Counted from the first letter of the stretch, positions 15,793-60,928 are shown. The stretch is DNA of 64,000 bases from Bacilli bacterium (GCA_045113315.1 JBGUIX010000014.1:3642-67641), one strand, 5' to 3'. Made by a program: numbers and translations. The notes: generated from the sequence alone by a model not told the origin.

Positions 15793-15821
15793 CACTTTTA
15801 CCTCCTCAATTTTCCATAAAG

Positions 15822-15877: not shown

Positions 15878-15994
15878 AAGCTTTGGCACCCAACATTACT
15901 TGGGTTGTCGGTGGGTCATAGGGCTTGTCCCTCGCCACACTCTTTATGGATGTATAAATTCTAACTTTATATTCCAAAATTAGCAATGCATTCA

Positions 15995-25795: not shown

Positions 25796-25823
25796 AAAAC
25801 TTTGTAAAACTCCCTTATTTTTA

Positions 25824-28440: not shown

Positions 28441-28441
28441 T

Positions 28442-29695: not shown

Positions 29696-29703
29696 AACCC
29701 CTC

Positions 29704-30552: not shown

Positions 30553-31022
30553 TCTCCTCCTTTTTCAGCGACTTCAAGTACCGCTTTAACAATCGCATTA
30601 TAACCAGTACATCTACAAAGATTACCAGATAAAGCAATTCTTACTTCCTCTTCACTTGGATGAGGATTTTTCTTTAATAAGGCATAAGTATTTAGAATCA
30701 TACCTGGAGTGCAGAAACCACACTGGCTCGCTCCAAAGTCTGCAAACGCATCAGCGATACGACGATATTGTTTTGTGTTTCTAAATCCTTCAATGGTAAC
30801 GACATGTTTTCCGATAATATTAGCAACAGGTGTTAAGCATGAATCGTAGCAAACACCATCCACTAAAACGGAACAAGCACCACAAGCGCCTTCCCCACAT
30901 CCTTCTTTGACTCCTGTCATATGAAGGTGAATTCTTAATAAATCTAATAACCTCATTGAAGGGTCAACTTTAACAACAACTGGTTTATTATTGAGGTGAA
31001 ATTTAATGATCTTCATTTTCAA
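30546..31022 (-). CDS. Xanthine dehydrogenase family [2Fe-2S] subunit
   Basis: 158 aa; CGEGACGACSV plus C..C...CGFCTPG. Confidence 0.85.
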   Translation of the reverse strand: MKMKIIKFHLNNKPVVVKVDPSMRLLDLLRIHLHMTGVKEGCGEGACGACSVLVDGVCYDSCLTPVANIIGKHVVTIEGFRNTKQYRRIADAFADFGASQCGFCTPGMILNTYALLKKNPHPSEEEVRIALSGNLCRCTGYNAIVKAVLEVAEKGGEW

Positions 31023-33096: not shown

Positions 33097-33116
33097 GACA
33101 TTTTCCCCTTTCTAAA

Positions 33117-35509: not shown

Positions 35510-36822
35510 TAGAATTTGACCTCCTTGTCACAGTTAATTAATTCACCTTTACCACCTAAGAAAACTTCATCTTTTAAAATGAATTTTCCACGTAACATCG
35601 TATGAACAATTTTCTCTTTAACTTTGATACCTTCATAAACACTGTAGTCACATTTTCCATGTGGTTTACCAATTGGATATTCGTCTACTTCTTTGATAAA
35701 AGCTAAGTCAGCGTCTTTACCAACCGCTATACTTCCTTTTTTCGAAAAACCATTTAAAAGTGCGATATTTTTACTCATTTTGTCGATAATTTGATCTCCA
35801 AATTGTTTATGAAGGATTACAAATGAAGATTCAATACCACCGATACCTAATGGGTGTCCCACTAAAGAAGGATGATTCTTTTTATCGCTCGACATAAAGG
35901 AACAATGGTCAGTTCCAATCGTATTTACATAACTAATATTTTTAATTAATAATTCTTGTTCTTCCTTACTTCTAAGTGGAGGAGCAAATGTATATAAATA
36001 GCCTTTGTCCGTATTCAAAACTTCTTTATTAAATGTGAAGTATTGAGGGCAACTTTCCACAAAGAAATGTTTTCCTAAAATATCACCATATTGATTAATT
36101 AATCTTTGTAATGTTTCACCTGATGAACAGTGGACCATATATAAATAACCTTGAGTGTCTTTAGCAAAACCTGCGAGTTTAAGAGCTTCGCTGTATTCAC
36201 ATTCACTTCCTCTAGCTTCAGATATATATGTACATGCGTATTCAGGTTTTAAAGAAACGAGTTCATCGTTTTCAATATGCGCGGTAACTAGAAAATTATA
36301 TTTCTTTGTTAATTCTAATAATTTGATGATGTCAGGATCATAAGTACGACGTCTAGTTTCAGAATAAGTTGTAAATAGCTTAATTGTATTCATCCCTAAT
36401 TTCTTCATCATTAAAACATATTGTTCTAAATCACCATCAGGTTCTTTAATACAAGCGTGAAAATGATAATCAACATGTGAGTCTTTAGCGAGCTGTAAAC
36501 GGTCATAAAATGATCTTTCTAATTTTCTCGCATTTCTAGTTGGATCTAAAAAATCAATAATTGTGGTAATACCACCATAAGCGGCACATCTACTACCAGC
36601 CTCAAAATCATCAACAGATGTGATAGTGCCACAATAAAGAGCGAAATGAACATGTGGATCGATTAATCCTGGAATAATCTTTAAACCAGTCGCATCGATT
36701 ATTTCATCCGCAGTCTTTTCTTCTTTTCCGATATAAGCAAAATGTTCATCCTCTATAAGGATATTGACGTCTTGCCATTTATTATCGATATAGACTTTTC
36801 CGTTTTTGACTAATTTAGTCAT
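35509..36822 (-). CDS. Cyclic amidohydrolase (D-hydantoinase/dihydropyrimidinase/allantoinase family)
   Basis: 437 aa; DPHVHF metal-binding motif. Confidence 0.75.
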   Translation of the reverse strand: MTKLVKNGKVYIDNKWQDVNILIEDEHFAYIGKEEKTADEIIDATGLKIIPGLIDPHVHFALYCGTITSVDDFEAGSRCAAYGGITTIIDFLDPTRNARKLERSFYDRLQLAKDSHVDYHFHACIKEPDGDLEQYVLMMKKLGMNTIKLFTTYSETRRRTYDPDIIKLLELTKKYNFLVTAHIENDELVSLKPEYACTYISEARGSECEYSEALKLAGFAKDTQGYLYMVHCSSGETLQRLINQYGDILGKHFFVESCPQYFTFNKEVLNTDKGYLYTFAPPLRSKEEQELLIKNISYVNTIGTDHCSFMSSDKKNHPSLVGHPLGIGGIESSFVILHKQFGDQIIDKMSKNIALLNGFSKKGSIAVGKDADLAFIKEVDEYPIGKPHGKCDYSVYEGIKVKEKIVHTMLRGKFILKDEVFLGGKGELINCDKEVKF

Positions 36823-39140: not shown

Positions 39141-39141
39141 A

Positions 39142-39594
39142 TTATTTACCCTCCGCTAAATAGGCTTTAATAGCCTTGAACTGAGAATGATATCCAGTAC
39201 ATCTACAAATATTACCCACCATAAAGTCTCTTATTTGTTCATCAGTGGGGTTTTTATATTCTTTCTTTAAAGCATGGATAATAATGGCCATACCAGAACC
39301 ACAGTAGGAGCATTGATTAGCGCCTTCTTCACCGAAGAAATGAGAAATTCTCGCCACTTCTTCTTGAATTCCTTCAACTGTAGTGACATGTTTACCGTTA
39401 ACACTAATTGCTAAAACGGAGCAGGAAAGGACTGGCTTTTCATCCACTAAAACTGTACAGCTTCCACAGATAGACTCATCGCATCCCACTCTAATTGAAA
39501 AGATGCCATGTCTTCTAAGAGCGTTAGAGAGATATTCGTCTGGTCTTACATCCCAAACGACTTCAGTACCATTTAAGAAAAATTGTAATTTCAT
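39142..39594 (-). CDS. Xanthine dehydrogenase family [2Fe-2S] subunit (enzyme 2)
   Basis: 150 aa; two 2Fe-2S Cys clusters. Confidence 0.85.
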   Translation of the reverse strand: MKLQFFLNGTEVVWDVRPDEYLSNALRRHGIFSIRVGCDESICGSCTVLVDEKPVLSCSVLAISVNGKHVTTVEGIQEEVARISHFFGEEGANQCSYCGSGMAIIIHALKKEYKNPTDEQIRDFMVGNICRCTGYHSQFKAIKAYLAEGK

Positions 39595-40376
39595 TATTTA
39601 TTAACCTCCTCTAAGCCTCTTAAAACATAGACTTTAACTAAGTCTTGTCTATATGCTTTGCTAATATTGTTACTATCTAAATAAGATAATTCTTCCGAAG
39701 CTAATTTCGCGGCTTCTTTAAATTCGCCTTTATCTGCCTCTTCCATCGCTTTTCTGGCTAAGGAGGCGACTAATGGACGAGAGCCAACGGCAATATAATG
39801 TTTATTATTTCTTTTAGAAATAGAGATGTTAACCATTGGAAAATCTAAAGAAGTGGCTTTCACTTTATGGAAATATCCTTTGCCTTCTTCTTTTTTGATA
39901 ACGATTTCCGTTAAGATACCATCAACCTTGCCTTTGATATTTAAGAATTCTTCTAAAGAATAAGATTGTTCTGGATATAATTTCACAGTGACATCAAGCG
40001 GTAATAAGCTAGCGATAACATCGGAGAAAGGGAATCTACCAAAGATAGAACCACCTATTGTCGCGGTGTTTCTAAAAGCAGGACCCACTACTTCACTAAC
40101 ACCAAATGAAGTTGCTCCTCCATTTAGTTTCTTGGTTTCTGGATTAGTTTCAAAATCTCTTAGTGTCACTAATGCGCCAACATGGATTTCATCTTTACTG
40201 ACTTTAATTTCATCAAGATGAAGTTCACTTAAATCAATTAGTGTTTCATAAGATAATCCAGTTTTCTTCATCCATAATCCACCAGCGATAATCGCGTTTT
40301 TAGGATTATCTTTTAGTTTTTGGTAAGCATCATCTAATGACGTTGCTTTGTAATAGTTGTTTACTCTTAGACTCAT
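39594..40376 (-). CDS. Xanthine dehydrogenase family FAD-binding subunit (enzyme 2)
   Basis: 260 aa; CO-DH flavoprotein-like AIIAGG motif. Confidence 0.75.
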   Translation of the reverse strand: MSLRVNNYYKATSLDDAYQKLKDNPKNAIIAGGLWMKKTGLSYETLIDLSELHLDEIKVSKDEIHVGALVTLRDFETNPETKKLNGGATSFGVSEVVGPAFRNTATIGGSIFGRFPFSDVIASLLPLDVTVKLYPEQSYSLEEFLNIKGKVDGILTEIVIKKEEGKGYFHKVKATSLDFPMVNISISKRNNKHYIAVGSRPLVASLARKAMEEADKGEFKEAAKLASEELSYLDSNNISKAYRQDLVKVYVLRGLEEVNK

Positions 40377-40378
40377 AA

Positions 40379-40939
40379 CTATTTCCTTTCTTCTTTTATT
40401 TTTAGATACTCACTTAATGTATCGATATCTCTTAAGATGTTTTCATCATCCACTTCAATGGATTCTTTGTCTTGTTTATCCCGAAAGATTTTTAAGTTAG
40501 ATTCCTTATCTTCTTTTAGAAGAGATTCTTTTAAATCTTTAGATATAAATAAGGGATGGCCATCTTTTCCTTTATAAGTGGGGTATCTCACTTTTTTAGA
40601 ACCATTTAATAGAGCCATAAATGTTTCTTTTTTTATAAAAGGGATATCACCTGGAAGAATGAAAAAATCTTCCTTTACTTCCTTTACTCCTTTTAAGACA
40701 CTAGAAAACATCCCATCGGGATAGTTCTCATTAAAAACGATTTTGATAGTAGCGTCTTCATTTAAAAAGGATCTGATATCCTGATCATAGTGACCAGTCA
40801 CTACGATAATCTTACTAACGAAAGGTTTGATTGAATCGATTGTTTTTAGTAGTAGCGGTTTATCTTTGATAATTAGATGCATTTTATTTTCACGCATCCT
40901 TGATGAAAAACCTCCTGCTAGAACAATCGCTTCCGCCAT
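40379..40939 (-). CDS. MobA-like nucleotidyltransferase; likely molybdenum cofactor cytidylyltransferase (MocA-like)
   Basis: 186 aa; LAGGFSSRM nucleotide-binding motif; adjacent to the MCD-dependent molybdoenzymes. Confidence 0.65.
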   Translation of the reverse strand: MAEAIVLAGGFSSRMRENKMHLIIKDKPLLLKTIDSIKPFVSKIIVVTGHYDQDIRSFLNEDATIKIVFNENYPDGMFSSVLKGVKEVKEDFFILPGDIPFIKKETFMALLNGSKKVRYPTYKGKDGHPLFISKDLKESLLKEDKESNLKIFRDKQDKESIEVDDENILRDIDTLSEYLKIKEERK

Positions 40940-41076
40940 TAAGATCTCCGAGTTTATATGTTTATTTTATTAAAAATATTACGTGCTCGCAAGCAAATGC
41001 ACGCACACAAAATAAGAAATTTCATGTAGTTGTTAATGATTAAGAAAAAAAGTAAACTTAATTTGGTGATTAAAAA

Positions 41077-42099
41077 ATGAAAGTACTTCTCTATTTTGAA
41101 AAAGAAGAAAAAATTAAAAAGTCAGGTATCGGAAGAGCTCTTAGACATCAAATTGCCGCGTTAACTTCCGCAGGTATTGAGTATACCCTAGATCCAAAAG
41201 ATACCTATGATATCGCTCATGTGAATACATATTTTCCAGCGAGCAAAAGATTAGTTAAAAAATTAAAGAAAAAACACATCCCTGTTATCGTCCATGGTCA
41301 TAGCACAAAAGAAGATTTCATGAATTCTTTTAGATTATGGAAATTAATGAAACTTTGGTTTTATCCAAATTTGATGTGGTTTTATAAAAACGCTGATTTC
41401 ATCATTACTCCTACTTTATATTCCAAGAATTTAATTGATTCTTATAATTTAGGAACTGAAGTAATTTATGTTTCTAATGGTATATCACCAGAAGAATATG
41501 CTTATGATGAAAAAAAGATTAATGAATTTAAAGAATTCTTCCACATTAAAGAGGGAGAAAAAGTAGTCATTGGTATTGGCTTCCCATTCAATAGAAAAGG
41601 AATTAAAGATTTCTTCGCTGTCGCTAAAGAAAGACCAAATGTCAAATTCATCTGGTTTGGTTTCTTACAAAGAATATTAACTCAACCAAATGTTTTAAAA
41701 GCGATTAAGAATAGACCAAATAATGTCATCATGCCTGGATATATTGATAACGCCATTATTAAAGGGGCATTAAGATACGCTGAATGTTTATTCTTCCCAA
41801 GTTATGAAGAAACAGAAGGCATTGTTGTTTTAGAAGCCCTAGCTAGTAACTGCCCAGTCTTAATTAGAGACATTGGCGTGTACGCTGATTGGTTAGAAGA
41901 TGGCCGTGATTGTTATAAGGGAAAGAACAATGAAGAGTTCCTAGAAAAACTAGATAAAATCATGACTTCCGATAATTCAAAAATGGTCGCAAATGGTTAT
42001 AAGTTAGTGGAAGAAAGAACACTAGAAAAAGTGGGTCAAGAACTCAAAGTGGCTTATACCAATTTATTAGAAAAATTTAACAAAAAACCTGCAAAATAG
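41077..42099 (+). CDS. GT4-family glycosyltransferase
   Basis: 340 aa; EETEGIVVLEALA (E-x7-E) motif. Confidence 0.8.
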   Translation: MKVLLYFEKEEKIKKSGIGRALRHQIAALTSAGIEYTLDPKDTYDIAHVNTYFPASKRLVKKLKKKHIPVIVHGHSTKEDFMNSFRLWKLMKLWFYPNLMWFYKNADFIITPTLYSKNLIDSYNLGTEVIYVSNGISPEEYAYDEKKINEFKEFFHIKEGEKVVIGIGFPFNRKGIKDFFAVAKERPNVKFIWFGFLQRILTQPNVLKAIKNRPNNVIMPGYIDNAIIKGALRYAECLFFPSYEETEGIVVLEALASNCPVLIRDIGVYADWLEDGRDCYKGKNNEEFLEKLDKIMTSDNSKMVANGYKLVEERTLEKVGQELKVAYTNLLEKFNKKPAK

Positions 42100-42140
42100 G
42101 GTTATTTTGATAGAAAATTAACAAAAAGTGAGGATTTTTT

Positions 42141-43061
42141 ATGGCAAGATATGTTGTCTCATTAGGTGGCAATGCATTAGGCAATAATGCGGAAGAACAA
42201 AAAGAATTATTAAAAGGTGTTGCTAAGCCAATCGTGGAATTAATTAAACATGGACATGAAGTTATTATTGTCCACGGAAATGGTCCCCAAGTTGGCATGA
42301 TTAATCTCGCATTCACCGATGCAAAAAGTGTCCCAGATATGCCTTTCCCTGAATGTGGTGCGATGAGCCAAGGTTATATTGGTTTCCACATTCAAAACGC
42401 CATTGATAATGAATTAAAGAAACAAAATGTTCAAAGAAATGTTGTCACAGTTGTTTCGCAAGTACTAGTGGATAAAAACGATCCATTATTCCAATCCCCA
42501 AGTAAACCAGTCGGCGCTTTCTATAGCGAACAAGAAGCTAAAGAAATCGCTTCTAAGATGGGATATACCATGAAAGAAGATGCTGGTAGAGGATATAGAA
42601 GAGTAGTTGCTAGTCCATTACCAATCGATATCATTGAAAAAGACTCAATCTCTGAATTAGTTAGTAAAGGTCATGTCGTTATCTGCGCAGGCGGAGGCGG
42701 TATCCCTGTTATTAGAAATGAAGACGGCTCTATTGAAGGTATTGCTGCAGTTATCGATAAAGACTATGCTTCCGCAAAAGTCGCAGCTTTAGTAGATGCT
42801 GATTACTTAGTAATCTTAACAGCGGTTGATAACGTTTATATCGATTTCAAAAAGCCAACAGAAAGAAAATTAGAAAAAGTTTCTGTTAATGAAATGAAAG
42901 AATATATGAAAGGCGATTATTTCGCTAAAGGAAGCATGTATCCAAAAGTGAATGCCTGTGTAAAATTCTTAAGCGAAAAGCCAGGTAAGGTCGCAATTAT
43001 CTCTTCTTTAGTGGCTGCTAAAGACGCCTTCTTAGAAAAGGCTGGAACAATCATTAAATAA
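42141..43061 (+). CDS. arcC: Carbamate kinase
   Basis: 306 aa; VVSLGGNAL and HGNGPQVG motifs. Confidence 0.85.
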   Translation: MARYVVSLGGNALGNNAEEQKELLKGVAKPIVELIKHGHEVIIVHGNGPQVGMINLAFTDAKSVPDMPFPECGAMSQGYIGFHIQNAIDNELKKQNVQRNVVTVVSQVLVDKNDPLFQSPSKPVGAFYSEQEAKEIASKMGYTMKEDAGRGYRRVVASPLPIDIIEKDSISELVSKGHVVICAGGGGIPVIRNEDGSIEGIAAVIDKDYASAKVAALVDADYLVILTAVDNVYIDFKKPTERKLEKVSVNEMKEYMKGDYFAKGSMYPKVNACVKFLSEKPGKVAIISSLVAAKDAFLEKAGTIIK

Positions 43062-49256: not shown

Positions 49257-49712
49257 TTAATAGAGTGTATGTTTTAAACTCATGTATTCCCCATAAAGTT
49301 TTAAGCAAGCTTTACGATCGAGTTCAATCACTAATTTTTCTCTTTCTCCAGGTTGTTGCATTTGATAGAACTTAGCATCTCTAAATCCAATTTCTTCTGT
49401 ATCAATTATATTACATCCGTAATATACTTTTTCAATATTTGCCCATAAAATTGCGGACATACACATTGGACATGGTTCACCAGTGGTATATAACTCACAA
49501 CCACTTAAATCAAAAGTTCCTAATTTCTTACAAGCTTTATGAATCGCCATCATTTCACCATGGCATGTTGGATCGTTATTTTTTAAAACTTGGTTATGGC
49601 CTTTACCGATAACTTCGCCATCTTTAACAATGACCGCACCAAAAGGTCCACCATGACCTGCTCTAATACCTTTTCTGGCTTCACTGATTGCCATTCTCAT
49701 ATATTTGTTCAT
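49257..49712 (-). CDS. CDA-fold nucleoside/nucleotide deaminase (TadA/guanine-deaminase-like)
   Basis: 151 aa; HGEMMAI and PCPMC zinc motifs. Confidence 0.75.
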   Translation of the reverse strand: MNKYMRMAISEARKGIRAGHGGPFGAVIVKDGEVIGKGHNQVLKNNDPTCHGEMMAIHKACKKLGTFDLSGCELYTTGEPCPMCMSAILWANIEKVYYGCNIIDTEEIGFRDAKFYQMQQPGEREKLVIELDRKACLKLYGEYMSLKHTLY

Positions 49713-49810
49713 TTGTAATACCTCGTTTTTAATTATACAAAAGTTTTTCCTTTTATATTGATAATTAATTAATTGGCTTATGTGTATAACAATACAAATT
49801 TATTTGTTTA

Positions 49811-49819
49811 TGTTATAAT
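49811..49819 (+). promoter_or_regulatory. Extended -10 promoter element TGtTATAAT upstream of tldD
   Basis: ttgtttaTGtTATAATtcaaagg, ~20 nt upstream of the AGGAGG RBS. Confidence 0.4.
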
Positions 49820-49847
49820 TCAAAGGCAAAAAAGAAGGAGGACAGTT

Positions 49848-51248
49848 ATGGTTAGTAAGAAATTAGCTATTGATGTTCTAAACGCCGCTTTAGAAACTGG
49901 AGCTGATTATGCTGAAATCTTTTATGAGGATTCACGTAGTTATAGCTTAAGTATTGAAAACGGCAAAGTTCAAACATCTTCATCAAATGTTATGAATGGT
50001 GTTGGTTTGAGATTATTAAAAGAAAATCAAACTGTATATGGATATACAAATGATTTAACAAGAAAAGGATTACTCGCTTTAGCGGAGTCATTACGTTCAT
50101 CTTTTAAAGGTAAAAGAATTATCACTGTTACCAAACTCGATATGATTCGCGCTAAAAATAGAAACCCAGTTAAAAATAGTTATGAAAATATCTCTAGAGA
50201 AGAAAAAATTGCCTTAGTTAAAGAAGGTATCGAAGAGATTGAAAAATTAAAAGATCCTAGAATCGTGAGATATATCGGAAGTTTTGCTGATAATCATCGT
50301 TTTGTGGCTGTTTTTAATTCAAAAGGAATATGGTTCAAACGTGATTCTGAATTCGGAAGATTAGCCTATAGCATTATTGCCGCTGATCAAAATGGTTTTG
50401 AAACAGCATTCGAAGGTCCAGGTGCTCAACAAGATATTTCCTACTTCAGATCAGTCGTAAATGTGAGAGAAGTAGCGAAAAAGGCTGCAAAAACCGCCTT
50501 ATTAATGCTAGAAGCGAAAGAATGCCCAAGTGGAAAAATGCCAGTTGTTATCGGTAACGGTTGGGGGGGCGTTTTGTTCCATGAAGCTTGTGGACACCCT
50601 TTAGAAGCTAGCGCTATTTCTAGAGGTTTATCTTGCTTTAATGGTAAAGAAGGCGACTATATTGCTTCTCCACTTGTCAGCGCTGTCGATGATAGCACCA
50701 TCCCACAAGGTTGGGGCTCTATTGATATCGATGATGAAGGTAACTTAGGTACCAAACGTTTATTAATTAAAGATGGTAAATTAGTCAATTACATGATTGA
50801 TGACTTTAACGGTAGAAGAATGAACCGTGAAGGTAATGGTGCTTGCCGTAGACAAAACTATAAATATTGTCCTACATCTCGTATGTCTAACACATACATT
50901 TGTAATGGTAAAAGTACACCGGAAGAAATTATCGCTGCTACAAAATTAGGTTTATATGCGGTTGGTTTCTCAGGCGGAAGTGTTGACCCCACTACCGGCG
51001 AATTTAACTTTGGTTGTTCAGAAGCTTATATCATCCGTGATGGTAAGATCTGTGAACCAGTTAAAGGTGCGACATTAATTGGCCATGGAGATGAAATCTT
51101 AAAACATATCGATATGGTTGGTAATGATTTAGCTTTAGGCCAAGGTATGTGTGGTGCTGCATCTGGTTCAATTAGAACTAATGTTGGTCAACCAACTTTA
51201 AGAATTAGCGAAATCACTGTTGGTGGTCACGGAGGAGAACTTAAATAA
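49848..51248 (+). CDS. tldD: TldD-family metalloprotease
   Basis: HEACGH motif; start set at ATG 49848 behind AGGAGG (the ORF track starts earlier). Confidence 0.85.
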   Translation: MVSKKLAIDVLNAALETGADYAEIFYEDSRSYSLSIENGKVQTSSSNVMNGVGLRLLKENQTVYGYTNDLTRKGLLALAESLRSSFKGKRIITVTKLDMIRAKNRNPVKNSYENISREEKIALVKEGIEEIEKLKDPRIVRYIGSFADNHRFVAVFNSKGIWFKRDSEFGRLAYSIIAADQNGFETAFEGPGAQQDISYFRSVVNVREVAKKAAKTALLMLEAKECPSGKMPVVIGNGWGGVLFHEACGHPLEASAISRGLSCFNGKEGDYIASPLVSAVDDSTIPQGWGSIDIDDEGNLGTKRLLIKDGKLVNYMIDDFNGRRMNREGNGACRRQNYKYCPTSRMSNTYICNGKSTPEEIIAATKLGLYAVGFSGGSVDPTTGEFNFGCSEAYIIRDGKICEPVKGATLIGHGDEILKHIDMVGNDLALGQGMCGAASGSIRTNVGQPTLRISEITVGGHGGELK

Positions 51249-52570
51249 TGAAATACGATAAGTTTTTTGCCCTCGCTAAAGAAGCGGGAATTGAAGAAGC
51301 AGAATTATATATTGGTGAAAGTTATTCATTATCTTTCTCTTTGTTCCATTCTGAAGTTGATAATTATTCCTCTAATAAATCGATGACTATTTTAGCTAGA
51401 GGTATTGTTAACGGTAAATTCGGTACCGCTAGCTGTGACTCTTGGAGTGTTGCTCATGCTAAATTTTTAGTGGATTCAATTGTCGCTAATGCGAAAGTCA
51501 TTGAAAATGAAGACCCTGCTTTTATATTTGAAGGCAGTAAAAAATATAAAAAGATTAATACATTTAATAAAGAATTAGAAAAGATTTCTATCGATGAAAA
51601 AATGAAGAAACTTTTCGAACTTGAAAAAGCCATCAAAGAAGGCGATAAAAGAGTCGTTGAAGTTGGTGGGGTGGAATATAGTGAAGATGCAGAAAGCGTC
51701 ACTATCTTAAATTCCAAAGGATTAAAACTAACACAAAAATCTAACTACTTTGTTTATGTTGGACAAGCTGTTGCTAAAGAAGGAAAACAAACCAAATCAG
51801 GTTACGAATTATTCTTAGATAACGACTTCTCAAAATTTGATGTTAAAAAATTAGCGAAAGAAGTTGTTGATAACACAGTTAGTCAATTAGGTGGGGAAGC
51901 TTGTGAATCTAATACATATAAAGCAATCTTATCACCTGATGTTGTGAAATCTTTCTTAGGCTTTTATATTGGAAACGCTGATGCGGAAGATGTCCAAAAG
52001 AAATCTTCTTTATTCATCGGTAAATTAAATCAAAAAGTGGCTTCTAGAAAGATCACCGTTGAAGATAAACCATTAAAAAGAAACGTCTTCTCACGTTGGT
52101 TTGATGACGAAGGTGTCGCAACCTACAATAAAGCAATCATTAAGAATGGTATTTTAATGACTTATCTCTATAATTTAACTACCGCTAGTAAAGATGGTGT
52201 GGAATCAACTGGTAATGCTTCTAGAGGTGGAAGTAAGATGGGAACATCCACTTTCTATTTAGAACTTAAACCAGGTAAAAAATCTCAAGAAGAATTATTT
52301 AAAGAGGTCCAAGATGGTGTTTATATCACTGAAGTACAAGGATTACATGCAGGACTTAATCCACAATCTGGTAATTTCTCACTTCAATCATCAGGTTTCT
52401 TAATTAAGAATGGTAAAAAAGATAGAGCGTTAGATGTTGTTACTGTTTCTGGTAACTTAATCGATGTCTTCAAAGATGTTTTAGAGGTCGGAAATGACCA
52501 AAGAGTATTCCCAAGTGGAATTGCATGCTCATCTTTATTAATTAAAAAGATTATTGTCTCTGGTAAATAA
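51248..52570 (+). CDS. TldE/PmbA-family protein (TldD partner)
   Basis: 440 aa; PmbA_TldD fold without HExxxH; start overlaps the tldD stop. Confidence 0.8.
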   Translation: MKYDKFFALAKEAGIEEAELYIGESYSLSFSLFHSEVDNYSSNKSMTILARGIVNGKFGTASCDSWSVAHAKFLVDSIVANAKVIENEDPAFIFEGSKKYKKINTFNKELEKISIDEKMKKLFELEKAIKEGDKRVVEVGGVEYSEDAESVTILNSKGLKLTQKSNYFVYVGQAVAKEGKQTKSGYELFLDNDFSKFDVKKLAKEVVDNTVSQLGGEACESNTYKAILSPDVVKSFLGFYIGNADAEDVQKKSSLFIGKLNQKVASRKITVEDKPLKRNVFSRWFDDEGVATYNKAIIKNGILMTYLYNLTTASKDGVESTGNASRGGSKMGTSTFYLELKPGKKSQEELFKEVQDGVYITEVQGLHAGLNPQSGNFSLQSSGFLIKNGKKDRALDVVTVSGNLIDVFKDVLEVGNDQRVFPSGIACSSLLIKKIIVSGK

Positions 52571-52572
52571 AC

Positions 52573-53850
52573 ATGAGAAAGATATTTAAAAACATTGTTT
52601 TATTATCAGGATTAATGGCTTTATCAGTTGCAGGCGCCTCTGCTTTAGCTATTAAAAGTCTAAATAATGAAGCTTTTGTGGCGGAAGCCGCTCAACACAA
52701 AGAAGCTTTCGACCCTTATGTTTATACAGGTTCATATTATGCGGATGGCAATATTACAGTTGATGATACTGGTGATTCTTTACGTAGTAAATTGACCAGT
52801 TATATTAACCCTCCAAAAGTTCCTGAATATAGTGGTAAAGGTTCTGGTTCTTTAGCGGAATACTGTCAACAAGCTGATGAAGATCCTACTAATAAATCCA
52901 ACATGATTTATCTATATACTAGAAATTCATTAGCGAAGAATCCTGCTAATTCATGGAATAGAGAACACGTTTGGCCAAAATCATTATCTAATGGTAACTG
53001 GGGCGAAGGACGTGCAGGTGCGGACTTATTGCATTTAAGACCGACATATCCAGCCACCAATAGTACAAGAAGCAATATTCCTTTTGGTAATGTCACAAAT
53101 GGTACCGAAAGAACTTATGAAGGAATGACATATGCTTGGACAGGCGGTGGATACTTTATGCCACTACCATCAGTTAGAGGTGATGTCGCTAGAATTATCA
53201 TGTATGTTTGGACAGCTTATTATGATGAATATGCATCAAGAAGGCCGCAAATCCTCTCTGTTTTCCAAAGTTATGACACTTTAATGCAGTGGCACATTGA
53301 AGATCAACCAGATGAAATGGAAGGCCATAGAAACGATATTGCGCAAGGCACATTCCAGAAGAATAGAAACCCATTTGTCGACCATCCAGATATAGCGTGG
53401 AAGATTTTTGGTAATCAATGCTCGAGCACAATGTTATCAAGAGCAATGTCAACTTACCCTGCTGATTGGAATCAATCTCCAGTCGCTAAAAAGATTTATC
53501 TAAGCGCCAATGAATTAACAGTGAATGTTGGTCAAGTTAGTAAATTACTCGCCAACGTACCTGCTACTTGGTCAATAAGTAAGAAGGCAAACGCCACATT
53601 AGAAGTTTCTAATGATAAAACCGCTATTAATATTACTGGTAAAAGAATCGGAGAAACCACTATTACAGCCAAAGATGAAAATGGTAATACCGCCACTTGT
53701 AAATTAACAGTTATCCCAGGAAGAAATGGCGAAACTGGTGAAGATGAAAATCTTAAGTGGATTATCCCTTTAGCAATTATCGTTGGTGTATTCATAATTG
53801 CGGGTGTAGTAGTTACTATTGTCTTAGTTTCAAAAAGAAAGAAAAAATAA
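52573..53850 (+). CDS. Extracellular Endonuclease-I-family nuclease with C-terminal Ig-like domain and TM anchor (paralog 1)
   Basis: 425 aa; signal peptide; Endonuclease I motifs NREHVWPKS and NRNPFVDHP; Big_3-like segment; C-terminal hydrophobic anchor followed by KRKKK. Confidence 0.8.
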   Translation: MRKIFKNIVLLSGLMALSVAGASALAIKSLNNEAFVAEAAQHKEAFDPYVYTGSYYADGNITVDDTGDSLRSKLTSYINPPKVPEYSGKGSGSLAEYCQQADEDPTNKSNMIYLYTRNSLAKNPANSWNREHVWPKSLSNGNWGEGRAGADLLHLRPTYPATNSTRSNIPFGNVTNGTERTYEGMTYAWTGGGYFMPLPSVRGDVARIIMYVWTAYYDEYASRRPQILSVFQSYDTLMQWHIEDQPDEMEGHRNDIAQGTFQKNRNPFVDHPDIAWKIFGNQCSSTMLSRAMSTYPADWNQSPVAKKIYLSANELTVNVGQVSKLLANVPATWSISKKANATLEVSNDKTAINITGKRIGETTITAKDENGNTATCKLTVIPGRNGETGEDENLKWIIPLAIIVGVFIIAGVVVTIVLVSKRKKK

Positions 53851-53950
53851 TTGTTTGATTCAATCGATATTTTTTAATCAGTGATTATATTTTATATAAT
53901 ATAGGTATACAATAAACTCTCGAGTTTAATAACTTGAAGTTGGTACTTAT

Positions 53951-56900
53951 ATGAATCCTAAAAACAAACACCGTATTATTCTAGCAGCAGGACTTGCTGC
54001 CACAGCTCTTTCTTTATGTGCTTTATCTTCATTACATAAAGAATACAAACAAGTTAAAGCAGTTGATATTAACGACTATACAGAATGTGATAAAAAGCAC
54101 CAGGCTAATAATGCCTCTGGCTTAATGGAAGAATTAGAAAAAATAACCGCACCAGGTTCATCTGGTTCTTATGATGAGTTATGGACCTCTTATGAAAAAG
54201 CTTATAAAAGGGCAGACGGAAAAATATTCGATTATTATTCAAGCATCACAAATTACACCCCTGCAAATCAGTGTGGAGGCTGTGATCATGAAGGTGCCTG
54301 TTATAACAGGGAACACTCGATTCCTAAATCTTGGTGGGGTGGATCAAAAAGTAACCAAGGATCGGATCCTTTTATTGTGGTTCCTACCGATGGTTATGTT
54401 AATAACGCAAGAAGCAACTTCCCGTTTGGTTATGTTGGATCCGTCTCGAAGCCCTTTTCTAATTCGAAACTCGGAACTGTGGCTTCTGGTTGGGGCATTA
54501 GTGGCACAGTATTTGAGCCTGACGATTCTTTAAAAGGTGATTTCGCAAGAATCTACTACTATACAACTGTTAAATATAATGTATCTAGTTGGACTAGTGG
54601 TGATGGATCGAAATGCTATTCCGGAAATGAAAGCACAAATTTCGGATTAACAAATTACTCAGTTAAACTATTTTCTGAATGGAGCGAACTAGATCCTGTT
54701 AGTGAATGGGAAGAGAGTGTTAATGATAAATTAGCTAGTATCCAAGGCAATAGAAATCCGTTTATCGATCATCCTGAGTACGCTAATACACTTTGGGGAA
54801 CGAATTCTAATTACACACAATATACACACGCTTCTTCATCTAATTGGGTGAAGATATCCTCTACATCAGAAAGTATGTCAGTAGGTGGCGTTACAACTCT
54901 TTCAGCAACTTCTAGTGACGGTTCAAATATTTCTTGGTCTAGCTCTAGTCCAACAATTGTTGAAATTGGTGCATCTCCCACAGCAAGCGGAACTCCTATT
55001 ACATTAACCGCTAAAGCGGCTGGTTCTGCTACTATTACAGCTTCCGCAACTATTGATGGAAGCACTTACTCCAAACAATGTTTAGTTGTTGTCACAAAAG
55101 CATTAAAATCATTAACTTATACAGGCACTCCTACTAAGACTACATATAATTCTGGTGATTCTTTTAATCCTAATGGATTAACAGTCACCGCTACATATAC
55201 TGATACGACATCTGAAAATGTCACAAGTCATGTGGTATGGACACCAAATCCATTAACTGCAAATATAACATCCGTCACAGGTACATATGGTGGACTAACT
55301 GTCACCGTTTCAGGATTAACAGTCAATCAAGCAAGTTCGATGTCGATTATTAATACTGATGTGCCTAATGGTAGTTATCCAAAAACACCAACAGATTTTA
55401 CAGCTGCTTCAGGTTTAAAATTTAAAGGCTATTATACCGGTAATTACGAAAGCTCAATTCAATTTAAATCCGGCCAAGGTTATCTCTATAATACCGAGGC
55501 TCTCCCTCTTTCTTCCCTCACAATAAATGTCAAATCAGGCAGTTTTACTGTTTACGGTGGTAAAGCCGAAAACCCATCCACTGTTATAACAGGAACTAAT
55601 AATACGTATAATCTAAACTCATATTCATATTTTAAAGTTGCTAATACAAGTAGCAGTGTTGCTAGAGCCAATTCAATTGAAGTTACCTTAGGAAGTTCTG
55701 AGGTATCTAAACTATCAAGCATCACTCTTAGCGATATACAAGAAGACTATTATGTTGGTGATTCCTTTGTTAAACCAATAGTCACCGCTCACTATGAAGA
55801 TGGCGGAAACGATGTAGTTACTTTAAAAGCCGAGTTCTCTGGCTATAATATGTCTTCAATCGGTGTTCAAACTGTCGAAGTTAGTTACACCGAAGGTGGC
55901 GTAACAGCTGAAGCTGATTTTGATATCGAAGTTAAAGCAAAACCAACTTTATCTTCACTAGAATTAACTGGCGATCCATTAACTACAACTTATTACCATG
56001 GTGATGTATTCTTAAGTGCTGGTTTAACTGTAACTGCTCATTATAGTGATAACACTAGCGATGACGTCACAAAAGATGTTGTCTGGACACCAAACCCATT
56101 AACATATGGCATTACTTCAGTCACAGGTACATATGAAGGTGAAACAGTTGTCGTTAATGGTTTAACTGTTAATAAATTATTACCAGTTTCTTTATCCACT
56201 ACCGGTCAAACCACTTCCTATACAGTGGGAGATTCATTCTCATATGACGGTACATGTAAAGTTACTTATAACAAAGGAACAACTAAAACTGTTACACCAA
56301 CAGTAGATTCTTCTTTAGTCAATATGTCTAAAGCGGGAACTTATAGTGTTTCTCTTTCATATACTGAAAACGAAACAACTGTTTCTACTTCTTATAACAT
56401 TACTGTTAGTGACAAACCATTTGTTAACACAATTAAAGAATGTTATAACAAATCTTCTGGAGCATCAGTAAGCCATGTGTATGGTTTATATGTTGGTTTA
56501 TTTAAGAATAATTCAAAAACCACAAGCACAATGATTATGAATGGCGAATATGGAATTATGCTTTATGGCTCAGTTCCTGATAATGCTTGGGTTGAAAATG
56601 AAACATATATCGATGTCACATCCGGAACTTTAGATATTTATAACAATCTATATCAAATTAAAAGTTGTGCTGTTAGCACTGAAGAGCAAGAAAAAATTAA
56701 ACCTAATGTGGCTCCGGTTAGTGTTTATACAGTAACAGGTGAAGAAAGCTCAGCTGATTTAACTGTGGCTAATAGATTAACTATCTTAAGTGGAACAATT
56801 ACAGTTAATAGTTGGACTGAAGGAAAAGATAGCAACATTACAGTTAATGGAACCACAATATTTATTAAAGGTGTTTCCGCTACTGCAGAATTAAAATCAA

Positions 56901-57424
56901 AATTAGATTCATATGGAACAACCAAACCAGCAACATTCAAATGTTTTACAGGTTTTTATAAGACAAACTTCCAAGTGCAATTTAAAGAATTAATGGAAGA
57001 AGATCCAGGTATTACCGCGGAATCATTCTCTTCTAAATTATTAGAATTAACTAATCCAATCTGTTCTTCTTCTGGAGAAAAAGAATCATCTTTATCTAGT
57101 GTTTGGATTAATTTACAAACTAATTATTGGGCAAAGATGAGTGATTCTCATAAACAGACATTAATTAATTCTGGTAAGAGTGAAACAGGTACTCCTATCG
57201 AAAAAGCGATGGCTAGATACGATAGAATATGTCAAAAATATAAATCCTGTACCAATTTTATTGGTAGACCAGGAGCGGAATACGCAAAAACGAATCTATT
57301 AATTAATATTAACACTAATGCGATGATGATCATTTTAATCTCCATCGGAGTGGCAGGTATTTCTGCATTAAGTTTATATATGTTTCTCACTCACAAGAAG
57401 AAAAAAACATCTAATGTAAAATAA
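53951..57424 (+). CDS. Large surface protein: N-terminal Endonuclease-I domain plus multiple Big_3 Ig-like domains plus C-terminal TM anchor (paralog 2)
   Basis: 1157 aa; NREHSIPKSWWGG and NRNPFIDHPEYA; at least four Big_3-type repeats; C-terminal TM followed by KKKK. Confidence 0.75.
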   Translation: MNPKNKHRIILAAGLAATALSLCALSSLHKEYKQVKAVDINDYTECDKKHQANNASGLMEELEKITAPGSSGSYDELWTSYEKAYKRADGKIFDYYSSITNYTPANQCGGCDHEGACYNREHSIPKSWWGGSKSNQGSDPFIVVPTDGYVNNARSNFPFGYVGSVSKPFSNSKLGTVASGWGISGTVFEPDDSLKGDFARIYYYTTVKYNVSSWTSGDGSKCYSGNESTNFGLTNYSVKLFSEWSELDPVSEWEESVNDKLASIQGNRNPFIDHPEYANTLWGTNSNYTQYTHASSSNWVKISSTSESMSVGGVTTLSATSSDGSNISWSSSSPTIVEIGASPTASGTPITLTAKAAGSATITASATIDGSTYSKQCLVVVTKALKSLTYTGTPTKTTYNSGDSFNPNGLTVTATYTDTTSENVTSHVVWTPNPLTANITSVTGTYGGLTVTVSGLTVNQASSMSIINTDVPNGSYPKTPTDFTAASGLKFKGYYTGNYESSIQFKSGQGYLYNTEALPLSSLTINVKSGSFTVYGGKAENPSTVITGTNNTYNLNSYSYFKVANTSSSVARANSIEVTLGSSEVSKLSSITLSDIQEDYYVGDSFVKPIVTAHYEDGGNDVVTLKAEFSGYNMSSIGVQTVEVSYTEGGVTAEADFDIEVKAKPTLSSLELTGDPLTTTYYHGDVFLSAGLTVTAHYSDNTSDDVTKDVVWTPNPLTYGITSVTGTYEGETVVVNGLTVNKLLPVSLSTTGQTTSYTVGDSFSYDGTCKVTYNKGTTKTVTPTVDSSLVNMSKAGTYSVSLSYTENETTVSTSYNITVSDKPFVNTIKECYNKSSGASVSHVYGLYVGLFKNNSKTTSTMIMNGEYGIMLYGSVPDNAWVENETYIDVTSGTLDIYNNLYQIKSCAVSTEEQEKIKPNVAPVSVYTVTGEESSADLTVANRLTILSGTITVNSWTEGKDSNITVNGTTIFIKGVSATAELKSKLDSYGTTKPATFKCFTGFYKTNFQVQFKELMEEDPGITAESFSSKLLELTNPICSSSGEKESSLSSVWINLQTNYWAKMSDSHKQTLINSGKSETGTPIEKAMARYDRICQKYKSCTNFIGRPGAEYAKTNLLININTNAMMIILISIGVAGISALSLYMFLTHKKKKTSNVK

Positions 57425-57469
57425 CATTAGAAGAAAAAACAAATATTTGATAAATTAAATCTGCACTCA

Positions 57470-60303
57470 ATGAAAAAATCATTAAGCTTAATTAAATTTT
57501 TAGGCGCCGGCTTCTTAAGCCTCGGCGCTATTTCCATATCTGCGGCAGCAATGAATCATACTTTTTCCAAAAACCAAAATGAAGTTGATGCAACAAGTGT
57601 GGACACTTATTATTCCACTGTTAGTGGTGATAAAAAAACAATCAACAAGGCACGTATAATTCTTTATTAGAAAGCATTAACACCAAAATAACTAATGGGA
57701 TTTCTTACACAGCTTATGACAATCTCAAAACCGCTTATGCAAAGACTTACGTTAGAAGTGATGGTTACACCTATGACATTTATTCCGATGTAACACAATA
57801 TACAGCTGGATCTGCTCATACAAGTTCAAGTAGTTATGTCGGTGGTGGTTACAATAAAGAACATACCATCCCACAATCATATTGGGGAAAAAGTACTAGC
57901 CAACAAGGGTGTGATTTATTTATTGTTCTTCCTTCAGATACATATGTGAACGGAAAGCGTTCAAATTATCCATACGGCATTACTTCTTCCGGAACATCAT
58001 ATCGTGGTTCTGGCGATCCAACAGGAAATAGATTGGGAACAACCACCAACACTAGTTATGTAAAAAGTGGCACTGTTTTCGAGCCTTTTGAATCAAGAAA
58101 GGGCGATCTTGCAAGAATATATTTCTACGCAGTAGCGATGTATTTAAAAAATGGGGCTCAAAATGGGGCCGTTAAAAACTGGACTGGCGGCGGAGAAGTT
58201 GATGGAAGCAAAACCATCTTCGGTTCCGGTACAGGATACAAAAGTTTTATCTATTCAAATTATTTAAATATGTTACTTGATTGGCATAAAAACGATCCTG
58301 TTTCTGCTGATGAGATTAAATTTAACAACGCTATTGAAGGCGTTCAAAAGAATAGAAATCCATTTATCGATCATCCATCATGGGTAGATATTATTTGGGG
58401 TGGAACATACGGCGCAAGCCAACAAAATGGTGAAGACACATCAAACGGTAATGCTGTTGTTGTGAACGGCCAAATTGAAGGTACAACACCATCTACAGAT
58501 CCAACAATTACAATTAATCCAACTTCTTTAACATTAACTGAAGGTGGAAGCACTGGAACAATTACTGCCACAGTTGCTAATGGTTCTGGAAATGTAACAT
58601 GGGAAAGCTCAGATACAGATGTTGTTACTGTTTCTAGTAGTGGCACAAATCAAACTACATGTACAGTTACTCCTGTAGCAGCGGGAACCACTACTATTAC
58701 AGCATCTTATTCCACTGCCACACCTGTTACGTGCTCTGTTACCGTTAATTCTTCCGGTGGAGGTGGAGATGACCCTGAAGTTGAATCAGAAATATTAGAT
58801 TTCACTGCTCAAAGCTATTCCGACCAAGAAGTTGTAGAAAGTTTATCAGGAACATATAGTTCTGTATCTTTAGATAAAGGCACAGGGAACAATGACCCAA
58901 AGTATTTTTCAAACGGAACTTCTGTTCGTTGCTATGGAGGAAACACTTTCACCGTTTCTAGTTCCACAAAAACAATAAAAAAGATTGAATTAACATTTGG
59001 AAGTAGTGACGGATCAAACGCCATAACCACAGATGTTGGAACATATAGTAGCGGAACTTGGACAGGAAGCGCTTCTTCAATTACATTTACAATCGGTGGA
59101 ACTTCAGGAAATAGAAGAATCCAAAAAATAACTGTTTATTACGAATCATCAACACCAACTCCAACACCAGTCATATCATTAAATAAATCATCTGATGAAA
59201 TTTCTGTTGGAGACGATACCTCATTGACGGCCACAGCTTCAGGTGGAACAGGAAACATTACATGGTCTATTAGTGAAGGAGATGAAGGCGTTGTTTCTTT
59301 AAGCTCTACAACAGGTACAACAATCACTATAACTGGTGAAAGCGAAGGTACGGCCACAATTACAGCCACTTATAGTGGAGTTTCAGCAACTTGTGAAATA
59401 ACAGTATCATCATCTGTTGATCCAGTAGTTTCGGGCGATTACACAATGACATTAGATTCAAGCGTGAGCGGCCAAAAAAATGTTCACTGGACATCAGCAT
59501 CTCAAGCATCTCTAGAATACGATAATGTTACATGGTCAACTTCTATAACTGGTACCACTTCAATCACTACTCAAACAGAATATGCTCAAATTGGATCAAA
59601 AAACAACCCAGCAACGAAAATTACTATTTCTACTACTGCATTTGCAGGTATGAAAATTACTAGCGCCTCATTAACTGGCTATTGTATGAGTAATACCGGC
59701 CCAACTATAACTATTACAGCTGGATCGACAACGATGCTAAATGCGCAAAGTCTAGTTAAGAACGAATCAACAGTTTATGAAACAACATCAGATCCAGTAA
59801 TTTTACCAGCTAACGGTGTGTTAACATTTACTATTAATTCTTCAGCTAAAGCTGGAATAGCAATTAGTGAAATAGTTGTCAATTACGTCGATATTCAAGA
59901 CGTTGCGGAAAAATATGCTAAATCATTTATGGAGTCTGGCATATGCGGTACTAACGACAAAACACCGGCCAGCGCTTCAATTTGGAATAGCATGAACCAA
60001 GCTTTCCAAGATATTGATGAAGACGCTCAAGATATTTTAACAGAGGGTATTGCTAATCCTTCTGACACCAAATACTTAGGCAAATGTTTGGCTAGATATG
60101 ATCGAATTCTTTATTTACATGGTAAAGATACAACTCACTTCCCAGACTTCATGCATCGTAATGATGAAAACGGAGCAAACCAAGTTCGTGGATTGATAAC
60201 AAACAAATCTAACACTACATTAATATTAATAATGATTAGCATCACATCCACGATGATCGGATTCATATTCGTTGGTTATTATTTAAAGAAGAAAGAGAGA
60301 TAA
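57470..60303 (+). pseudogene. Endonuclease-I + Ig-like surface protein paralog 3, interrupted by a -1/+2 frameshift at an A7 tract (57632..57638)
   Basis: Signal peptide ORF 57470..57670 ends YYSTVSGDKKTINKARIILY*. The frame from 57634 continues NNQQGTYNSLLESINTK...NKEHTIPQSYWGK...NRNPFIDHP... through to 60303. One extra A (A8) would give a continuous EndA-like N-terminus (…GDKKNNQQGTYNSLLESI…). Confidence 0.6.
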
Positions 60304-60404
60304 GTTAATAAGCTTATCTTTTTTTCAAAAAACTCTAATAATTAGTATCCTTATTATTTATAATATATACGTTCCTTTTGAAGGTTGGACACTTAAGGAG
60401 AAGT

Positions 60405-60875
60405 ATGAAAACATTAATTATGCTTAGTGCTGTCCCAGCAGCCGGTAAAACAACCTGGGCTAAAAAATATCAAGCTGAACATCAAAATGTCTACATCATC
60501 AATAGTGATGAAGTAAGACTAGAAATAACTCATGGAGATTATCAGGATCATTCCCATCAAAAAGAAGTTTGGGAATTATTTGAAAGACGCATTCATGAAT
60601 ACGCGAATAAAGGTGATGATGTCACCGTTATATTAGATGCTTTAAATGATGTTAATGAGGTGAGATATAAATATTTAAGCACCACTCCTGAATACGATAA
60701 AAAGATATTAGTCTTATTCCCGACATCATTAGAAAAATCATTACATTATAATGGTGAAAGGGTGTGGCCTAATAAAGTACCGGATGATATCCTTGTGGGG
60801 TTAGTTCATAAATTTGAACAACCAAATGAAAAAGTTCTATCACTTGTAGATGAAGTTATTACTATTAAATGGTAA
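60405..60875 (+). CDS. P-loop kinase-like ATP-binding protein (AAA_33 / polynucleotide-kinase or zeta-toxin-like fold)
   Basis: Walker A SAVPAAGKTTWA; start set at ATG 60405 behind AAGGAGA. Confidence 0.5.
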   Translation: MKTLIMLSAVPAAGKTTWAKKYQAEHQNVYIINSDEVRLEITHGDYQDHSHQKEVWELFERRIHEYANKGDDVTVILDALNDVNEVRYKYLSTTPEYDKKILVLFPTSLEKSLHYNGERVWPNKVPDDILVGLVHKFEQPNEKVLSLVDEVITIKW

Positions 60876-60928
60876 TAATTTTTTATTTTGTTATTATTAT
60901 ATTAACTACGTATACATAGGAGTAAATT

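Follow-up and report, generated by a model that had tools for sequence, protein, structure and literature searches.

The Endonuclease I family has already been described in fusions with fn3, LTD and Big_2 domains (Jablonska et al. 2017, PMC5714182), and its catalysis is understood from the Vibrio enzyme Vvn, in which Glu79 and Asn127 hold the metal, His80 acts as the general base and Arg99 stabilises the transition state (PMC5758888, PMC3593177). Architectures with an OB-fold and an anchor are known from SWAN, SpnA and YhcR (PMC4118848) and from Xds (PMC6746945), and membrane nucleases of mycoplasmas supply nucleotide precursors (PMC12115388). Here we analysed an array of three genes for predicted surface nucleases, g1, g2 and g3, at positions 52573..60303 of a stretch of DNA of 64,000 nt (GCA_045113315.1 JBGUIX010000014.1:3642-67641), which we call the window. 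Its source is an uncultured Bacilli bacterium known from metagenomes only, a metagenome-assembled genome (MAG) of commensal type. We hold it probable, with moderate confidence, that the three proteins are surface-tethered non-specific nucleases that would degrade extracellular nucleic acids for nutrient scavenging.

The open reading frame (ORF) listing places the three genes consecutively on the plus strand, where all features of the array given below are located. The short surface nuclease g1 (52573..53850) has 425 aa and consists of a signal peptide, an Endonuclease I head, one immunoglobulin (Ig)-like domain, a transmembrane (TM) helix and the tail KRKKK. For the long surface nuclease g2 (53951..57424, an ORF of 1157 aa), Pfam and an AlphaFold2 (AF2) model gave a signal peptide, an Endonuclease I head, five Ig-like domains with one poorly modelled beta domain, a tandem OB-fold, a four-helix bundle, a TM helix and KKKK. 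The third surface nuclease, g3 (57470..60303), is disrupted and would have 944 aa if repaired. Frame analysis and Pfam show its layout as signal, Endonuclease I head with the motif NKEH, Big_2, beta-sandwich module, Big_2-like domain, second beta-sandwich module, helical module, TM helix and KKKER. The ATG of g1 lies 3 nt past the stop codon of pmbA, and g3 begins 45 nt after g2. An earlier note on this DNA had listed three plus-strand genes of 425, 1157 and about 930 aa, the last one frameshifted, with the same 45-nt spacing; the ORFs and their coordinates bear this out.

All three heads matched Pfam Endonuclease_1 (PF04231), with 95 bits for g1 (E = 7e-27), 170 bits for g2 (E = 1e-49) and 164 bits for the repaired translation of g3 (E = 5.6e-48). 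The scores are so far above the curated cut-off of 25 bits that chance matches are excluded. The domain covers approximately residues 45-295 of g1 (52705..53457) and, by the Pfam match, residues 61-276 of g2 (54131..54778). The His motif reads NREH at residue 129 of g1 and 119 of g2 and NKEH at residue 129 of g3. The motif N..RSN is located at 163, 151 and 161 and NRNPF[IV]DHP at 264, 267 and 295 of g1, g2 and g3, respectively. The putative catalytic set consists of E131, H132 and N163 in g1, E121, H122 and N151 in g2, and E131, H132 and N161 in g3. Across 13 diverse heads the positions N119, E121, H122, P125, S127, D139, N151, R154, S155, G196, D197, A199, R200, N267, N269, P270 and F271 (g2 numbering) were invariant. 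The complete Endonuclease I core that the earlier note ascribed to each protein is indeed present, with NKEH as the variant in g3, and the catalytic His and Asn were found conserved on alignment.

The nearest solved structures to the heads are Vvn and Vibrio endonucleases I. The Vvn segment GEVNGDRSNF, which contains Asn127, aligned to GYVNNARSNF of g2, so that Asn127 equals N151. The alignments of HMMER and hhalign to Vvn and EndA covered only the C-terminal two-thirds of the head and missed the His motif; the equivalence of this motif is taken from a MAFFT alignment with E. coli EndA (MG1655), in which EWEHVVP falls on NREHSIP and VNGDRGN on VNNARSN. A short-motif search with the His region against PDB sequences gave no match. 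E121-H122 of g2 correspond to Glu79-His80 of Vvn, and equivalents of Vvn Glu79, His80 and Asn127 were found in g1, g2 and g3. The eight conserved cysteines that make up the four disulfides of Vvn and EndA are missing, as the heads hold 1-5 Cys, none of them aligned with the EndA cysteines. Members of the family from Bdellovibrio likewise lack them (PMC3593177), so the eight-Cys set marks a gamma/epsilon-proteobacterial subgroup and not the whole family. Judging from sequence, the heads are expected to be Endonuclease I-family His-Me-finger (beta-beta-alpha-metal) nucleases with predicted activity.

A Kyte-Doolittle scan recovered exactly two hydrophobic segments in each protein, one N-terminal and one C-terminal (residues 4-28 and 392-423 in g1). 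The N-termini display basic n-regions, 20-residue hydrophobic cores and Ala-x-Ala-type sites. The C-terminal TM helix is encoded at 53746..53841 in g1, followed by KRKKK, at 57296..57391 in g2, where hydrophobicity and AF2 place it before HKKKKTSNVK with its KKKK, and at 60211..60285 in g3, followed by KKKER; the helix of g3 is nearly identical across seven alleles. The 60 C-terminal residues of each protein contain no LPxT[GAN], that is, no LPXTG-type signal. These features fit exported type-I membrane proteins with a C-terminal anchor in the case of g1, g2 and an intact g3. The earlier note, which had regarded the proteins as exported and not intracellular and had assigned a TM helix with a basic tail to each, agrees with the two-segment topology and the Lys-rich tails.

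Regarding the stalks, the picture drawn earlier needs correction. Big_3 domains had been reported on all three proteins, but Big_3 (PF07523) scores above its threshold in g2 only (53.2 bits, E = 3.5e-14, in two stretches; cut-off 21.2). In g3 the match is to Big_2 (PF02368; 26.2 bits against a cut-off of 22.8, E = 7.5e-6), and g1 has a single Ig-like domain with no Pfam Ig model above threshold. The domain of g1 (approximately residues 300-385; 53470..53727) was recognised by alignment to the Ig domains of g2 and g3: residues 308-380 align to residues 569-646 of g3 with 35% identity, and residues 91-366 of g1 align to residues 71-364 of g2. The stalk of g2 (residues 298-820; 54842..56410) was delimited using AF2 secondary structure and predicted local distance difference test (pLDDT) values, Foldseek and the Big_3 match. 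The full-length AF2 model, computed from an alignment of 28 sequences (mean pLDDT 72.7), arranges the protein as N-terminal helix, head, Ig-like domains, two beta-barrels, four-helix bundle and TM helix. The Ig-like domains are at residues 298-382, 385-460, 588-662, 667-741 and 745-820, with the low-confidence beta domain at 461-587. Foldseek with the full model returned only generic Ig strings, e.g. the S-layer proteins Sap and SbsC, GhpA and titin.

A tandem OB-fold was identified in g2 by AF2 and Foldseek at residues 843-909 and 943-1014 (56477..56992). Residues 822-1105 modelled alone reached a pLDDT of 94.2 and a predicted template modelling score (pTM) of 0.90, and the top Foldseek matches of this part in the PDB, every one of the 28 with E<=1e-3 among them, are tandem-OB nucleic-acid binders: RPA, Oxytricha TEBP, the double-stranded DNA-bound HIN-200 domains of AIM2, IFI16, p202 and p204, Teb1, POT1 and SSB (probability about 1.0, E from 1e-5 to 1e-3). 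Based on the model, the module probably binds nucleic acid. It is followed by a membrane-proximal four-helix bundle (residues 1023-1096; 57017..57238; AF2 and alignment) in which a Cys, a Trp and a Tyr are invariant and the motif ARYD is nearly so. The helical module occurs in 108 of 433 collected proteins and the OB module in 44, nearly always alongside PF04231, an association that is biased because the 433 proteins were gathered by homology to the array proteins. The OB module is found in neither g1 nor g3. Even at E <= 10, Pfam had no match to the OB module, the helical module, the two beta-sandwich modules of g3 or residues 461-587 of g2, and a profile search with the helical module resulted in three fragments only. 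The body composed of tandem OB, helical bundle and TM helix is, as far as could be found, apparently undescribed in the literature. The earlier note had missed both the tandem OB-fold and the helical module.

The 5′ ORF of g3 starts at 57470 and comprises 66 residues up to a stop at 57670, and coding resumes in another frame to 60303. DNA comparison with two related loci (L009 and L010) placed the frameshift in a run of seven A (A7) at 57632..57638. Related strains read GATAAAAACAACAATC and the window reads GATAAAAAAACAATC; one C was lost, fusing A5 and A2 into A7, and one base restored at this place gives a continuous protein of 944 aa. Intact relatives of g3 are P0002, P0003 and P0005, whose protein reads SGDKNNNQQGTY in P0002 and SGNKNNNQQGTY in P0003, and six other alleles are intact. 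The 66-aa product contains no nuclease, and the long downstream ORF is devoid of the signal peptide and the catalytic His. As read from the assembly, g3 is inactivated in the window strain by a 1-nt deletion making A7, which gives substance to the frameshift noticed earlier. We considered a sequencing error and rejected it, as the identical A7 is found in six contigs, each assembled independently, that stem from one sequencing project. These contigs are 100% identical over 15 kb and so represent one strain, which leaves a systematic error formally possible. Compared with its nearest allele, the g3 head has a ratio of nonsynonymous to synonymous substitution rates (dN/dS) of 0.06, which suggests that the inactivation is recent or reversible.

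The order tldD-pmbA-g1-g2-slot 3-kinase-ABC was found in six other loci (L007, L009, L094, L096, L010 and L095), of which L010 is incomplete, its contig beginning within g2, and L095 has N gaps across g1-g2. The flanks of these loci are 91-97% identical to the window. Clusters at 90% contain 16 members for g1 and 11 for g2, and both genes are intact in every strain seen. Against related strains, dN/dS is 0.09-0.13 for g1, 0.21-0.26 for g2 and 0.07-0.08 for pmbA, and the range of 0.09-0.26 places g1 and g2 under purifying selection. The ectodomain of g3 is a hypervariable cassette (57562..60216), as revealed by blastn of the six loci against the window: DNA homology ends at about 57561, past the part coding for the signal peptide, and returns at about 60217 at the TM anchor, with a Big_2 island of about 300 bp (58476..58780) common to most alleles. 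The seven slot-3 alleles encode 919-1054 aa and agree almost completely in the signal peptide (27 residues) and in the TM/tail (30 residues). The heads of the six other alleles are 98, 91, 37, 35, 30 and 30% identical to the g3 head of the window, and some are nearer to the g2 head. By these alignments the slot is hypervariable and its ectodomain is swapped between related strains, a feature that the earlier note had not seen. Such an allele-swapping slot is apparently undescribed in the literature, as far as could be found. Silent donor cassettes for g3 within the window were considered and rejected, since tblastn gave distant Big_3-like matches only. The g2 of L009 (5330..8827) has 79% protein identity to the g2 of the window with a synonymous rate (dS) of 0.61, and its flanking genes have 97-99% identity and dS of 0.10-0.15; this divergence next to similar flanks suggests that g2 also underwent allele exchange, less than slot 3.

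Within the window, the head of g1 is 29-30% identical to those of g2 and g3, and the heads of g2 and g3 are 39% identical to each other. As each has closer relatives in other organisms, a recent tandem duplication was rejected, and identities of 29-39% point to old paralogues. At the tldD-pmbA locus of two more distant relatives (L092 10001..13528 and L093 10001..13369) we found a single nuclease and neither the kinase nor the ABC gene. One of these nucleases has a g2-type head and the other a g1-type head (49% identity, residues 1-397) on a g2-type body, which shows that heads and bodies were reshuffled in the course of evolution. A more far-reaching interpretation, which we put forward only as a doubtful possibility, is that slot 3 serves as a variable-surface-protein slot. 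The signal and the TM/tail would act as recombination handles, the whole ectodomain (the heads, which fall into three to four subtypes or more with 30-98% identity, together with unannotated beta-sandwich modules) would be exchanged, and A7 would be a slippage on/off switch; the OB module and helical bundle of g2 would be a new membrane-proximal nucleic-acid-capture device. If true, this would be an antigenic or phase-variation-like system around an enzyme in uncultured commensal Bacilli.

The general architecture itself, which had been called unusual, turned out to be widespread. A search with g3 gave 1446 homologues, and most of the 120 listed are Endonuclease_1 + Big_2/Big_3 proteins of 900-1400 aa. 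Among these listed homologues, proteins from Bacilli-type MAGs end in a TM helix with a basic tail, those of Bacteroidota in tails of the type IX secretion system (T9SS) type and others in dockerins. The exhaustive search with g1 resulted in 8187 cluster representatives (223 at E <= 1e-30), and two to three tandem Endonuclease_1 genes are present in 14 of 80 loci from reference genomes. Taken with the published fusions (PMC5714182), these numbers make both the architecture and the tandem layout ordinary for the family. The best named relative among the matches listed is an Anaeroplasmataceae MAG with 53%. In MAGs labelled as Bacilli, Erysipelotrichaceae and Anaeroplasmataceae (L011 9275..10690, L090 9053..10708 and L040 369..1943) the nuclease head is C-terminal on a lipoprotein with an N-terminal Cys lipobox and a Ser-rich linker, representing a second mode of tethering.

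From these features we infer the enzymatic activity, the export, the nucleic-acid binding by the OB-fold and the physiological role of g1-g3 as follows. The Sec signal would export the N-terminal part, and the C-terminal TM helix with its cytoplasmic Lys-rich tail would retain the protein. The exposed head may cut DNA, and probably RNA, without sequence specificity, with His132/122/132 of g1/g2/g3 as the general base and Glu131/121/131 together with Asn163/151/161 holding Mg2+. The head of g1 would be kept close to the membrane on its one Ig-like domain, and that of g2 would stand about five Ig domains out, with the membrane-near tandem OB-fold probably gripping nucleic acid. Recombination in the conserved stretches for signal and anchor would exchange the ectodomain of slot 3 between strains, and the 1-nt deletion has turned the slot off in this strain. 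Degradation at the surface would proceed from oligonucleotides to nucleotides and further to nucleosides and bases. The cell could then take up these products, either as precursors of nucleotides or to obtain purine, carbon, nitrogen and phosphate.

Two other parts of the window could belong to this pathway, and both had been named by the earlier note. The gene at 6728..8545 (+) codes for a predicted surface 5′-nucleotidase-family lipoprotein with Metallophos and 5_nucleotid_C domains and the lipobox LLGGC followed by a Ser-rich linker; the product scores under the cut-offs of all specific NCBIfam equivalogs. The second part, described earlier as a purine-fermentation cluster and also recovered here with its xanthine-dehydrogenase, YgeY, SsnA-like and carbamate-kinase genes (24785..43061), is of purine/urate degradation type (24785..40939 on the minus and 42141..43061 on the plus strand). 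It resembles the genes with which gut bacteria degrade purine and urate anaerobically (compare bioRxiv 10.1101/2025.05.19.654654 and 10.1101/2022.07.24.501321). Above cut-offs are a YgeY-family hydrolase (672 bits) and the carbamate kinase. The cluster also includes SsnA-like and dihydropyrimidinase-like amidohydrolases, two XdhA-like molybdoenzymes with FAD and 2Fe-2S subunits, an OTCase/YgeW-like carbamoyltransferase, two pyridoxal-phosphate enzymes, a dihydropyrimidine dehydrogenase-like Fe-S flavoprotein and a MobA-like gene. A chain from nuclease to nucleotidase to purine catabolism is plausible. The nucleotidase and purine genes are not adjacent to the array, and the feeding role is therefore put forward as plausible.

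Several observations weigh against nutrient scavenging by these nucleases. The nucleotidase and the purine cluster lie 10-45 kb from the array, mostly on the opposite strand, and no nucleoside or nucleotide transporter is adjacent to it. No recognisable Shine-Dalgarno sequence precedes g1, g2 or g3 (52548..52572, 53926..53950 and 57445..57469), which suggests a weaker or different translation initiation for the nuclease genes. The EndA equivalog of NCBIfam (PRK15137) gave 32 bits for g2, 17 bits for g3 and nothing for g1 against a cut-off of 372 bits. The three proteins are therefore members of the family and not EndA orthologues and, with the RNase Bsn also in the family, their preferred substrate may be DNA or RNA. 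In the full-length AF2 model of g2 the head has a low confidence (pLDDT 43-78), and the template modelling scores (TM-scores) of the OB-fold matches are just 0.2-0.44. Finally, slot 3 is hypervariable, which points to phages, host immunity or binding targets as selecting forces and not to nutrition alone; phages, immunity or differing ligands would account for the variable slot at least as well as feeding does.

The last point leads to other functions. The nucleases may take part in interaction with a host or community, remodelling or escaping DNA meshes such as biofilm extracellular DNA, mucus DNA and extracellular traps, with the Ig-like and beta-sandwich modules as adhesins and slot 3 diversifying binding or evading antibodies. 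Such roles are known for streptococcal surface nucleases and the Endonuclease I-type Vibrio Dns (PMC4118848, PMC6746945, PMC3593177), the replacement of g3 alleles is typical of surface antigens, and the Ig strings resemble S-layer and adhesin stalks. Yet the organism is an uncultured Bacilli MAG of commensal type for which no pathogenic way of life is known, selection on the conserved g1 and g2 is of the ordinary purifying kind, and the dedicated module of g2 is, in the model, a nucleic-acid-binding fold and not adhesin-like. We find this explanation rather unlikely, though it is compatible with feeding. Destruction of transforming, plasmid or phage DNA at the surface, as proposed for periplasmic EndA, Vvn and Dns, seems to us improbable. 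Members of the family are said to make transformation by foreign DNA less frequent (PMC5714182, group 9) and the variable g3 could reflect an arms race with phages using it as a receptor, but phages inject their DNA directly and do not present it at the tip of a stalk that ends several Ig domains from the membrane (five in g2), no restriction-modification or other defence genes are adjacent, and no PADLOC model matches. In PADLOC-DB neither g1, g2 and g3 nor TldD and PmbA had a match, and the downstream kinase had a weak one to TRIP13 only. A polymorphic toxin or defence system was likewise considered and rejected: the nuclease occupies the N-terminal part, preceded by a signal peptide, an immunity gene is lacking and, again, no PADLOC model matches.

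The membrane-proximal g1 might also process DNA for import, as in naturally competent Gram-positives, given that its catalytic head sits one Ig domain from the membrane and that it is the most conserved of the three genes. However, com and pilus genes are not in the neighbourhood and, to our knowledge, competence nucleases belong to families other than Endonuclease_1, which makes such a role very unlikely. We give equally little credence to a decaying array in which the g3 frameshift is the first visible sign of lost function. It is true that g3 is broken in this strain and that related species retain one nuclease only at this locus, but g1 and g2 are intact under purifying selection in all strains seen and g3 is intact in the six other alleles. 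Scavenging of extracellular nucleic acids stays the interpretation that we prefer.

Directly upstream of g1 lie tldD and pmbA (49773..52570, +), whose synteny with the nuclease locus is kept in related species, and a gene of the dCMP/cytidine-deaminase family (49257..49712), which counts with the nucleotidase and the purine cluster as nutritional context for the feeding role, adjoins tldD. Downstream of the array we found a small AAA_33/KTI12-type kinase (60378..60875, +) and an ABC_tran+FtsX fusion of 1140 aa with a very large extracytoplasmic loop, which runs off the window (60926..>64000, +). A Shine-Dalgarno sequence is present before both the kinase (AAGGAG, 60380..60404) and the ABC gene (AGGAG, 60904..60928). 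In the related loci compared, these two genes always accompany slot 3 and are missing where slot 3 is missing. Scans for promoters and terminators gave counts at or close to those in shuffled sequence, and we obtained no Rfam match near the locus and no tRNAs. Elsewhere in the window, a predicted lipoprotein of 983 aa (20463..23414, −; LTLSAC) and an adjoining secreted protein of 386 aa (23427..24587, −) had no Pfam match at 1e-5 and only weak Big_3-like tblastn matches, and they appear as uncharacterised surface proteins. An S-adenosylmethionine (SAM, S-box) riboswitch at 15834..15952 (−) scores 45.8 bits, slightly more than the gathering threshold, and overlaps with the 5′ end of a 121-aa ORF (15514..15879), for which the TTG listed as the start may be placed too far upstream.

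If active, the enzymes would show how widespread uncultured low-GC Bacilli handle extracellular DNA and RNA, a question relevant to what becomes of free DNA in gut-type communities and to cross-feeding there on nucleotides and purines. In g2, the tandem OB-fold with the helical bundle, for which there is no family model, is a clonable candidate for a new surface nucleic-acid-binding unit. The slot of g3 is a natural case of whole-ectodomain swapping between a fixed signal and anchor, with which variation of surface proteins could be studied in organisms other than pathogens. What is known of Endonuclease I chemistry is unchanged by the array, and its general architecture has been catalogued before.

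Compared with known systems, the catalytic domain of g1-g3 is the same as in Endonuclease I (E. coli EndA, V. vulnificus Vvn, V. cholerae Dns and Dickeya NucM; His-Me finger group 9), and the Glu-His, the Asn and the C-terminal QxNxNP[FY] region align. Those enzymes are exported, sequence-non-specific nucleases of about 230 aa, soluble in the periplasm or secreted, with four disulfides. Unlike them, the array proteins have no such cysteines and a shorter Omega-loop, and the nuclease is the head of an anchored multidomain protein of 425-1157 aa. Bsn of B. subtilis, a Mg2+-activated extracellular RNase (PMC5714182), belongs to the same PF04231 family in a Gram-positive and indicates that the fold can prefer RNA; compared by its description, it differs from the array proteins in being short and secreted, without stalk, OB module or anchor. 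Mycoplasma MnuA and the SNase-like lipoproteins (PMC12115388, PMC3585158) are membrane nucleases of low-GC Bacilli-related bacteria and are thought to supply nucleotide precursors, but their catalytic domains are unrelated and their anchors are those of lipoproteins. SWAN of S. sanguinis, SpnA of S. pyogenes, SsnA of S. suis and YhcR of B. subtilis (PMC4118848), as well as Xds (PMC6746945), combine a surface or extracellular nuclease with OB and Ig-like or LTD domains. Their catalytic fold is EEP/DNase I-like or SNase, whereas the array has Endonuclease_1 only, and SWAN, SpnA, SsnA and YhcR are anchored by LPXTG-sortase, whereas the array proteins have no LPXTG. The OB-folds are N-terminal in these cell-wall nucleases and predicted to be membrane-proximal in g2, the only array protein with such a module. 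The same design as in the array is found in the Endonuclease_1 + Ig-like fusions (PMC5714182), including those with Bacteroidota T9SS tails and clostridial dockerins, which came up as direct homologues in our searches. The array proteins are distinguished from these fusions by the C-terminal TM helix and KKKK tail after a helical bundle and, in g2, by the additional tandem OB-fold.

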